From: a virus
DNA length: 64,000 bases
IMG/VR virus record: IMGVR_UViG_3300046777_002520
Coordinates: 127,967 to 191,966 of that record
Reading direction: 5' to 3' (one strand)
In this document: positions 6,452-63,964 of the stretch, one piece after another
Layout: the number at the start of each line of letters is the position of its first letter
How positions within the stretch are numbered: position 1 is the first letter of the stretch
Position numbers and translations under genes: made by a program
The notes under the pieces: model-generated
Database searches by the model: none
What the model was told of the DNA's origin: nothing
Seen by the model: only the letters and a program-made list of their open reading frames with translations

Positions 6452-6589
6452 ATGCAAATCTATAATGAACTCAGTCCAGTCACCGCTGGACCACTAGAAC
6501 AAACAAGCGGTGTTTGACTCCTTGGATTCCACGCTGAATCGCGTGAAGGAGCACAGGTCCGAACCTGTGATCTAGACTTTTTTTTAGCT
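6452..6589 (+). ncRNA. candidate small structured RNA, cassette 2 payload
   Basis: No ORF over about 21 codons and no RBS-led start. Stems CTCCTT/AAGGAG enclosing CACGC/GCGTG, and CACAGGT-ccga-ACCTGTG. Ends at T8-AGCT (6578-6589). Confidence 0.45.
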
Positions 6590-46747: not shown

Positions 46748-47050
46748 ATGGCAGAAAAGCTAGTCATCGTTGAAGACTCGGTAATAACCAGCTTGCTTAC
46801 CAACCCCAAGATTCTGTCTGACATACCGTCTTTGAAGACAGCAGCGTCGTCAAAGAATCCTGGAAGTCCTTCCTGCAGACCCTGCGCCAGAAAAGCTGCG
46901 GCCAAGTCACTCAACTACGCACAGGCGAAAAGAATCATAGCCAATCTGAGAGGAGAAGCCCTCGCCAGACTTAAGCAGGAGCTGGGCGCAGACAAGATCA
47001 GAGTCATCTACGGCAGCGAGTCAGGTAAGCTAGTTCAGATCACAATGTGA
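46748..47050 (+). CDS. small basic hypothetical protein with CxxC
   Basis: 100 aa containing CRPC; last gene of the long + strand structural run. Confidence 0.6.
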   Translation: MAEKLVIVEDSVITSLLTNPKILSDIPSLKTAASSKNPGSPSCRPCARKAAAKSLNYAQAKRIIANLRGEALARLKQELGADKIRVIYGSESGKLVQITM

Positions 47051-47054
47051 CTGC

Positions 47055-47082
47055 TTAATTCAGCACAAAAACACGTCATACT
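47055..47082 (+). promoter_or_regulatory. cassette promoter-like motif, copy 4
   Basis: TTAATT(47055-47060)-N16-CATACT(47077-47082); shares CTGCTTAATTCAG with copy 3. Confidence 0.7.
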
Positions 47083-47084
47083 AA

Positions 47085-47456
47085 TATGAATGCCAATTAG
47101 CTTTGCTACGACAGCAACAACCGTTGAGCCACGTCGGCGGTCTAGTTGCACGATAGCGCGCAGTTGGTATTACATTACCTGTAATGATTGCAGGAGGTTC
47201 TCACACGCCAGAGTTGTGAGCGGTTGCCGCTACGAGACAGCGAACGTTACCTGTGGCGCATTACACAGGAGGTACTGACGGCTACCAAAACGCAGGTCAT
47301 GCTTCGGTTGCTTCTCTATTTGCAACCGATCATGCATAGTAGAAATAGAGAGGTGTAACCCGCACTGCGTTAAATGGGGGACCGTGAAACTCGGTACTAC
47401 AAGACCAGCAGGCTGACGCATATATTGCGTCGGCTTTGCTGGTTTTGTTTTTAGCT
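47085..47456 (+). ncRNA. candidate ~370-nt structured non-coding RNA with pseudoknot
   Basis: Own promoter motif, multiple stems, loop TTCTCTATTT (47312-47321) complementary to AAATAGAGAG (47343-47352), a ~20-bp terminal hairpin (47401-47446), then T5-AGCT. Confidence 0.55.
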
Positions 47457-47466
47457 ATGGCCTGAA

Positions 47467-47494
47467 TAAATCCACACGGATTTCAGGTCATAAT
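47467..47494 (+). promoter_or_regulatory. cassette promoter-like motif, copy 5
   Basis: TAAATC(47467-47472)-N16-CATAAT(47489-47494). Confidence 0.65.
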
Positions 47495-47535
47495 CTATTG
47501 GTGTTGTATTATCTAGCCCACAGCCAGGAGGCGAC

Positions 47536-47697
47536 ATGAAAGCTATGGTAATGAAAAGCAAAGTTGTAGTCGGCAGGATTCAGACTCAATTGACCGCAAC
47601 CCAGCAGCGGCTGCTGGATTTGGGCGTGTCACTACGGCCGATTGTCTTTACCGCTAACGGCGGTAAACGGCGCTACTTGCGCCAGTTATGCAAATAA
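47536..47697 (+). CDS. 53-aa basic hypothetical protein (not in ORF track), cassette payload
   Basis: RBS AGGAGG then ATG; MKAMVMKSKVVVGRIQTQLTATQQRLLDLGVSLRPIVFTANGGKRRYLRQLCK; followed by a terminator. Confidence 0.65.
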   Translation: MKAMVMKSKVVVGRIQTQLTATQQRLLDLGVSLRPIVFTANGGKRRYLRQLCK

Positions 47698-47715
47698 GCA
47701 ATAACGAGGATTTTC

Positions 47716-47772
47716 CTCACCACCCGCATCTCCCCTAAGGAGTTGCGGGTTTGGTGGGGTTTTTCCTTAGCT
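47716..47772 (+). terminator. long imperfect hairpin + T-run, ending in TTAGCT boundary
   Basis: CTCACCA-CCCGCA-t-CTCC-cctaa-GGAG-t-TGCGGG-tt-TGGTGGG, then TTTTT and CCTTAGCTATTGG. Confidence 0.7.
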
Positions 47773-47846
47773 ATTGGAAAACTCCTGTAGGAAAGCTCCT
47801 GTAAATAAGTTAGGATAGCCCTGGGTCTTTTCAGAAAGGAACAACC

Positions 47847-48119
47847 ATGCGTATTGTCGAAGAAGCTTTTGAGCGGATCGGCCCCAAGGCCACCGTCGTT
47901 GTCGAAGCCGACACGATGGAGAAGGTGAAGAGCCTGGAAGCCCGTAATCTGGCTCTGGACTTTGCCCGAAAGAACGGGTTGTCTGTGCCAGGGTTTACTG
48001 GCGGCTCCTGGACCGAATGGGTGGACGAGACTGGAAAGGCGTTGCTTGGAGAAGACTTCAAAAACGCTTCGACTCGGTTGGTTCGGGCTTCCTATCCTGT
48101 GCAAGAGGCTGTCATCTAA
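47847..48119 (+). CDS. hypothetical protein
   Basis: RBS AAGGA; 90 aa. Confidence 0.7.
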   Translation: MRIVEEAFERIGPKATVVVEADTMEKVKSLEARNLALDFARKNGLSVPGFTGGSWTEWVDETGKALLGEDFKNASTRLVRASYPVQEAVI

Positions 48120-63892: not shown

Positions 63893-63964
63893 GCCACTGT
63901 AGCTCAACGGTAGAGCTCTGGTTTTGTAAACCAGGGGTTGAGGGTTCGAGTCCCTCCGGTGGCT
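63893..63964 (+). tRNA. trnT: tRNA-Thr(TGT), CCA not encoded
   Basis: Acceptor GCCACTG/CGGTGGC, D arm GCTC-AACGGTA-GAGC, anticodon arm CTGGT-TTTGTAA-ACCAG, T arm GAGGG-TTCGAGT-CCCTC. Confidence 0.95.

Follow-up and report, generated by a model that had tools for sequence, protein, structure and literature searches.

Locus and Transcription Unit

The window analyzed here, a stretch of 64,000 nt, forms the terminal third of an IMG/VR virus record that is 192 kb long and an estimated 93% complete. In a 485-nt gap between a 100-aa open reading frame (ORF; 46748–47050, + strand) and a 53-aa ORF (47536–47697, +) lies an RNA gene, an ORF-less transcription unit of ~365 nt (47086–47452, +) with a copy number of one in the phage genome. 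An earlier note had singled out this segment as a candidate structured noncoding RNA (ncRNA), and all of the motifs it listed are present: the stem 47304–47311/47322–47329 and the complement of its loop (47343–47352), two GCT..AGC loops (47105–47115, 47229–47241), the duplicated hexamers CAACCG (47118, 47323) and CGGTTG (47221, 47305), and two CAGGAGGT motifs (47191, 47266).

The note also credited the RNA with a promoter of its own, which holds for a phage-type cassette promoter and not for a sigma-70 type. A strict sigma-70 scan returned no promoter at the RNA locus while detecting the terminator. The genome has instead a promoter class with a TTAAT-type box, a gap of ~16 nt and (GT)CATAMT, represented here (47055–47082, +) by a TTAATT box at 47055–47060, a spacer, and GTCATACT at 47075–47082. 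This pattern occurs four times in the window against 0.21 expected (at least four in 0 of 100 shuffles). All four copies (window 6028, 6421, 6602, and 47055) are on the + strand, intergenic, and head a small cassette, with copies also at genome positions 44021, 95196, and 56774. Both boxes are conserved and the spacer is variable in 10 homologs of the RNA locus. The spacing of the boxes would place the 5′ end of the transcript at ~47086–47090. ATGC or TTGC usually follows CATAMT by 3 nt in this class, and the cassettes under it end with a hairpin, a T run, and AGCT.

At the 3′ end, the terminator scan and the predicted fold agree on an intrinsic terminator (47399–47452, +) comprising a stem of ~22 bp (47399–47420/47426–47448) and a U tract, in keeping with the ~20-bp terminator previously described; its stem shows compensatory changes among homologs. 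An AGCT boundary and the promoter of the next gene follow. This next cassette, which lies outside the RNA (47453–47697, +), comprises the boundary AGCTATGG, a palindrome (47461–47487), GTCATAAT at 47487, and the 53-aa ORF, whose protein is conserved in relatives; a small ORF cassette follows the slot in most of them. The palindrome is imperfect and overlies the cassette promoter. The 53-aa product is basic and has a motif, common to the relatives, resembling Xis/AlpA-type helix-turn-helix proteins; judged by these features, it may bind DNA and regulate its own expression.

Metatranscriptomes provide a hint of an abundant stable transcript. Words of the stretch were found in four runs, three of which (from two studies) gave contigs wholly within the RNA (47166–47409, 47220–47379, and 47112–47278), one of them being the variant of a close relative (locus L017), and the fourth gave a contig in the 100-aa gene. 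These contigs are of low depth and the libraries may hold DNA carry-over; equally, the parts of the stretch left uncovered in RNA runs are not evidence of silence.

Homologs and Distribution

Using the neighboring 156-aa and 100-aa proteins, we collected 60-odd syntenic loci from IMG/VR, JGI, ENA, and Logan. An nhmmer search of these loci recovered 11 other copies of the RNA, which together with the window copy fall into five lineages and range from 311 to 570 nt. The window copy and L017 are 98% identical to each other. The remaining lineages comprise L039, with a minimal natural variant of 311 nt; the L003 type (L003, L024, L025, L026, and L028); L027 with L029; and L062, L063, and L064, with RNAs of ~570 nt.

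All RNA-bearing samples are freshwater or lake samples, and the RNA family was found only in a clade of uncultivated ~190-kb freshwater phages. A conserved-motif scan of 185,579 species genomes found no copies of the RNA, the same scan of IMG/VR found only the known relatives and one coding chance match (L048), and a blastn search of the RNA against a phage GenBank collection gave zero matches. The AAA ATPase of these phages has a best identity of only ~30% to cultured phages and gives no clue to the host. Presence of the RNA is patchy, some related phages being without it. The RNA core of L039 is closer to the window (68% identity) than that of L003 (58%), yet its neighboring gene is more distant (68% vs. 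77%), a discordance compatible with cassette exchange as read from these identities.

Coding Potential

The 62-codon ORF within the segment (47090–47278) is found only in the window and L017. Counted from the second ATG, the copies have 62, 62, 7, 18, 26, 38, 38, 8, 46, 46, and 0 codons and the predicted peptides are unrelated, the lineages being separated by large indels whose lengths are not divisible by three. Minus-strand ORFs lie in different regions and none is common to the RNA copies, and a Shine-Dalgarno-plus-start arrangement is absent anywhere in the RNA. The RNA holds no ORF that keeps its length and peptide across the lineages under synonymous bias, as a small protein gene would. 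The earlier note held that conservation of the 62-codon ORF in homologs that lack covariation would speak against an RNA; the ORF is broken and covariation is present.

One coding-like feature is retained: ATG-N9-TAG at the extreme 5′ end (window 47086–47100) in all five lineages, with a different set of nine bases in L063. The same bases belong to a helix, P1, and transcription probably starts downstream of the ATG, which makes a leaderless mini-gene unlikely; retention of the motif is probably a by-product of P1. With its own promoter, an intrinsic terminator, and no conserved ORF, the unit has the makeup of an independent bacterial-type ncRNA gene.

Fold Statistics and Covariation

Thermodynamic folding strongly favors structure on the + strand. 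The segment 47085–47456 folds at −149 kcal/mol compared with −114 ± 5 for shuffled sequences (z = −7.05), whereas the − strand of the same segment gives z = −2.59; folds of homologs give z = −4.3, −6.2, and −7.6.

MAFFT alignments of the core misplaced three hairpins (h3, h6, and h9), so we used a covariance model built from the conserved 3′ core of L027 and L029, to which the other lineages were aligned. Standard pairs occupy 93.2% of cells in the resulting core alignment, against 79.1% with the 3′ letters shuffled and 31–44% with partners slid by 1–3 columns. Both sides have changed in 24 of 46 pairs (shuffled mean 11.7; at least 24 in 0 of 500 shuffles), counts that come from an alignment fitted to the structure, with five lineages and with the L039 row misplaced. 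G-U intermediates are many and fit a + strand RNA only. Helices are thus kept by compensatory substitutions, as in a structured RNA family, in an alignment fitted to the model. The window itself is a weak match to the covariance model (17 bits, E 0.075), and constraining its fold to the consensus costs 17 kcal/mol relative to the MFE. When applied to the full alignment, RNAalifold recovered the structure only partly.

Architecture of the RNA

The RNA comprises a variable 5′ part (domain D1 and hairpins h2, h3, and h4) and a conserved 3′ core, in which a long-range helix closes a junction that holds h5, h6, h7, and h8; h9 and the terminator lie downstream of this junction. All parts lie on the + strand. 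D1 (47086–47175; helices as in the MFE fold) is built on P1 (~47089–47098/47162–47171), which is retained with altered sequence in L039 and L063, and has a variable apex (47099–47161), which L039 lacks and the L003 type has in a much enlarged form. Next comes module 1 (47178–47220), with h2 (47178–47184/47188–47194), GGAGGU (47193–47198), and h3 (47200–47205/47215–47220). In h2 the pair 47183/47189 is A-U in the window and G-C in L017, a single compensatory event, and h4 (47228–47242; stem 47228–47231/47239–47242, 7-nt loop) likewise shows one such event, G-C to A-U in L039.

The long-range helix closing the core junction (47245–47248 with 47373–47376; covariance-model helix 1) has 7 bp in the L003, L027, and L063 lineages but only 4 bp in the window. 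Within it, module 2 (47250–47299) repeats the pattern of a hairpin, GGAGGU, and a second hairpin whose loop contains (A/G)CC: h5 (47250–47255/47264–47269), GGAGGU (47268–47273, partly inside h5), and h6 (47276–47279/47296–47299) with ACC at 47284–47286. Both h5 and h6 (covariance-model helices 2 and 3) covary. L063 has GCC in place of GGU together with GGC in place of the h6-loop ACC, a paired change that, seen in few lineages, lends weak support to GGU:ACC as a candidate 3-bp H-type pseudoknot. Loss of GGAGGU and the loop ACC in the L063 lineage shows that they are not essential as sequence.

Tandem duplication of this module in the window and L039 lineages came to light when the covariance model, built on another lineage's module 2, aligned L039 on its module 1, which also spoiled that row of the alignment. 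The L027 lineage has a single module, to which module 1 is similar, whereas in module 2 the second hairpin is most like its L063-lineage counterpart. Such resemblances suggest modular recombination among RNA variants.

The variable domain h7 (47301–47351) is ambiguous in the window, where the 8-bp stem (47304–47311/47322–47329) competes with a 9–10-bp pairing of its loop (47312–47321/47343–47352); the free MFE takes the loop pairing and the consensus-constrained fold takes the stem. This domain is deleted in L039 and is a nested two-tier covarying hairpin (helices 4 and 5) in the L003, L027, and L063 lineages. Downstream, h8 (47352–47366; 47352–47356/47362–47366) has an invariant AACCC pentaloop (47357–47361) on four different stem sequences, in which 100% of cells are paired. 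Next comes a conserved single strand (47367–47380) with the UUAAAUGGG motif, which includes the 3′ strand of the long-range helix. AAAUGGG (47372–47378) is invariant in 12 of 12 copies, and L062 and L063 are without one U of UUAAAUGGG. Complementarity of the CCC of the AACCC loop to the G run of this strand makes a second candidate pseudoknot, one that would compete with the extended long-range helix. Finally, h9 (47381–47395; 47381–47384/47392–47395; helix 7) has both-side changes in four of five pairs. Three unpaired elements of the RNA are thus nearly invariant: the pentaloop AACCC, the strand with UUAAAUGGG, and GGAGGU together with the h6-loop ACC.

Against this architecture, the stand-alone, noncoding character of the RNA stands, and the features originally offered as its functional core do not. 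An H-type pseudoknot between 47304–47329 and 47343–47352 is not supported by the comparison: the stem and pseudoknot element (~47301–47347) is wholly missing from L039 and replaced in other lineages, and the stems compete in the window. From pseudoknot geometry, the 8-bp stem and the loop pairing could not both form in full with linkers of 0–1 bases. The mutually exclusive CAACCG/CGGTTG folds fare no better, three of the four hexamers being in lineage-specific inserts without a counterpart in L039; simple arithmetic predicts ~16 repeated hexamer pairs in 370 nt by chance, so that their duplication is not evidence of function. Both CAGGAGGT motifs are real and mark the centers of the duplicated module, but the first is not conserved (CAGGCGGT in L017). 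Both of the twin GCT..AGC loops exist, the first within an insert confined to the window and L017.

Cassettes Occupying the Same Slot

Among relatives the slot is a hot spot for cassettes, each built of promoter, payload, and terminator. L030 carries a promoter-driven tRNA-Arg(CCG) at 2368–2445 (ARAGORN; 38 bits in Rfam), with a second structured RNA after it. L040 (2430–2640; also L041–L047) carries an RNA in which a canonical T-arm precedes an acceptor-like strand rich in GC; ARAGORN finds no tRNA there, and Rfam matches only the 3′ end of tmRNA at 14 bits. L006, L007, and L008 (also L021) carry a CRISPR-like array of five 29-nt repeats at 60–62-nt spacing (L007:4973–5245); the L007 repeats have a palindromic core and the last ones are degenerate. 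A second array of three repeats precedes the AAA ATPase gene (L007:6501–6650). The repeat of these sister phages had no match in 185,579 species genomes and hence points to no host, the array spacers had no target among the syntenic loci collected, and an IMG/VR scan of two of them returned nothing beyond the arrays they came from. In several lineages the slot holds just a 75–90-nt hairpin RNA cassette.

Comparison with Known RNAs

Searches against Rfam 15, including tmRNA, RNase P, GOLLD, ROOL, 6S, group I/II introns, riboswitches, and ribozymes, gave no match to the RNA at gathering thresholds or at E = 10; the only E = 10 match in 46900–47900 was to a miRNA (15.8 bits), which falls outside the RNA and is a chance one. 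Its homologs likewise matched no family. ARAGORN found no tRNA or tmRNA in the RNA or its homologs, the sole call in the window being tRNA-Thr at 63893–63964. These results agree with the note, which recognized no hallmarks of tmRNA, RNase P, or tRNA. The partner genes of retron, DGR, and Y-RNA systems were sought as reverse transcriptase (PF00078), Ro/TROVE (PF05731), and RtcB (PF01139), none of which is present in the 93%-complete record.

The closest known kind is the GOLLD/ROOL-type RNA of phages and prophages, and the RNA described here is a member of neither family. All are phage-borne, occur at tRNA-gene sites and in lake metagenomes, have many helices and probable pseudoknots, and have no assigned function. 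GOLLD is carried by phages where relatives carry tRNA genes, and its 3′ region is conserved whereas its 5′ region varies (PMC12286853), an organization that recurs here. In contrast to GOLLD and ROOL (~580 to >800 nt), the present RNA is 310–570 nt, matches neither in Rfam by sequence or structure, and is a swappable cassette with its own promoter and terminator. Phage tRNA genes and tRNA-like RNAs share the promoter-payload-terminator slot, as in L030 and L040, but our RNA is five times longer than a tRNA gene and has no cloverleaf, T-loop, or acceptor end.

Camara-Wilpert et al. are said to have described, in 2023, RNA anti-CRISPRs in the form of solitary repeat units and phage mini-CRISPR arrays. 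Like these, our RNA is an accessory phage RNA payload, and 29-nt repeats occupy the same slot in sister phages. Unlike a Cas6-binding mimic, it has an h8 stem that varies freely, and nhmmer detects no similarity between the window RNA and the sister-phage array. The CsrB/RsmZ sponge RNAs resemble it in having many hairpins in a row and a purine motif that recurs, and a trans-acting decoy, as they are, is the mode that we tentatively favor below. They differ in that the RNA here has only three GGA, in stems or junctions and not in loops, and no Rfam match. The CsrA decoy proposed earlier is accordingly unlikely, a CsrA/RsmA sponge needing many GGA motifs accessible in the loops of its hairpins. 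Readings as a CRISPR-repeat mimic, a tRNA anticodon-arm mimic, or a T-box-like element were dropped for want of matching features.

Interpretation

The explanation we favor, with a little better than even confidence in it as a whole, is that the locus is a structured ncRNA gene outside the Rfam families whose abundant product acts in trans, binding a host or phage macromolecule, as an accessory payload. The RNA would be made in large amounts during infection and would act as RNA, most probably by presenting its conserved loops and junctions to the host or phage macromolecule. It might do so by decoying a protein or the ribosome or by scaffolding a ribonucleoprotein, and would serve host takeover or counter-defense. 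Its accessory nature is suggested by relatives that are without the RNA or have a tRNA, a tRNA-like RNA, or a CRISPR-like array in its slot. A more specific version, which we put forward as a tentative possibility, makes the RNA one payload of a system exchanging RNA weapons (tRNAs, CRISPR-like arrays, ornate RNAs) at a fixed slot; as an RNA-only counter-defense or takeover device, it would sequester a host defense or translation factor, or assemble into a higher-order particle, via AACCC, the UUAAAUGGG strand, and GGU:ACC.

Other readings of a functional RNA are less persuasive. The invariance of the unpaired motifs, the perfect Shine-Dalgarno GGAGGU without a start codon behind it, and the promoter and Rho-independent terminator like those of classical sRNAs could all be accommodated by a base-pairing regulatory sRNA, with the AACCC loop, the UUAAAUGGG strand, or GGAGGU as a seed against host or phage mRNAs or the 16S anti-Shine-Dalgarno. 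We consider this unlikely given the absence from the whole phage genome of an antisense match of at least 13 nt at E < 0.8, a size (310–570 nt) and elaboration (about ten helices) far beyond those of seed-type sRNAs, and the position of GGAGGU partly in h5 and its loss in L063. A self-assembling RNA-only particle or a ribosome-associated ornate RNA in the manner of GOLLD and ROOL, which would fit the phage-borne location in the place of tRNA genes and the conserved 3′ and variable 5′ parts (for GOLLD, PMC12286853), is quite doubtful: the RNA is half their size or less, matches neither even at E = 10, and has no conserved self-complementary kissing loop. We give somewhat less credence again to a selfish or decaying cassette filler, transcribed and folded but serving only as a stable, hairpin-rich spacer or insulator between operons. 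Patchy distribution, rapid turnover of inserts, and the many relatives with only a 75–90-nt hairpin cassette are what such a filler would produce, but compensatory changes in at least six helices and invariant loops, in lineages whose neighboring gene is only 66–81% identical at the DNA level, indicate purifying selection on the fold.

Readings that dispense with a trans-acting RNA are very improbable. A peptide gene would have to be either the 62-aa ORF (47090–47278), which is broken or unrelated outside the window and L017, or the leaderless four-codon ATG-N9-TAG, whose constant place in five of five lineages, including L063 with its different nine bases, has to be set against bases that form P1, a first ATG that by its distance from the −10 box is probably at or before the transcript start, and the lack of a Shine-Dalgarno-plus-start arrangement. 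No more credible is a cis element, whether a riboswitch or leader of the 53-aa gene or a DNA site such as an origin or pac. The RNA does lie directly upstream of this small same-strand gene, but a 22-bp terminator with a U tract and then a separate conserved promoter intervene, riboswitch models do not match, unrelated payloads replace the RNA in relatives, and the G-U pairs and strand asymmetry favor RNA over DNA. A ribozyme or switch, which the earlier note had also entertained, has no support from Rfam or from the architecture, in which a constitutive 22-bp terminator lies ahead of the next gene's separate promoter.

GOLLD- and ROOL-type ornate phage RNAs are still without a function, and a smaller, modular relative in kind would be more tractable, its natural minimal 311-nt variant and clear covariation being suited to structure probing and partner discovery. 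A slot otherwise holding tRNAs or CRISPR-like arrays points to phage-host or phage-phage conflict, and the shared arrangement of promoter, payload, terminator, and AGCT boundary suggests how phages trade small RNA and protein payloads.

A separate observation concerns another ORF-less cassette RNA of the window (6452–6589), which is preceded by a T-arm-plus-CCA-like minihelix. By eye, the structured RNA that follows the tRNA-Arg of L030 (~2446–2560) looks homologous to it. The resemblance suggests that these RNAs form a family linked to tRNAs and that cassettes are shuffled from slot to slot.
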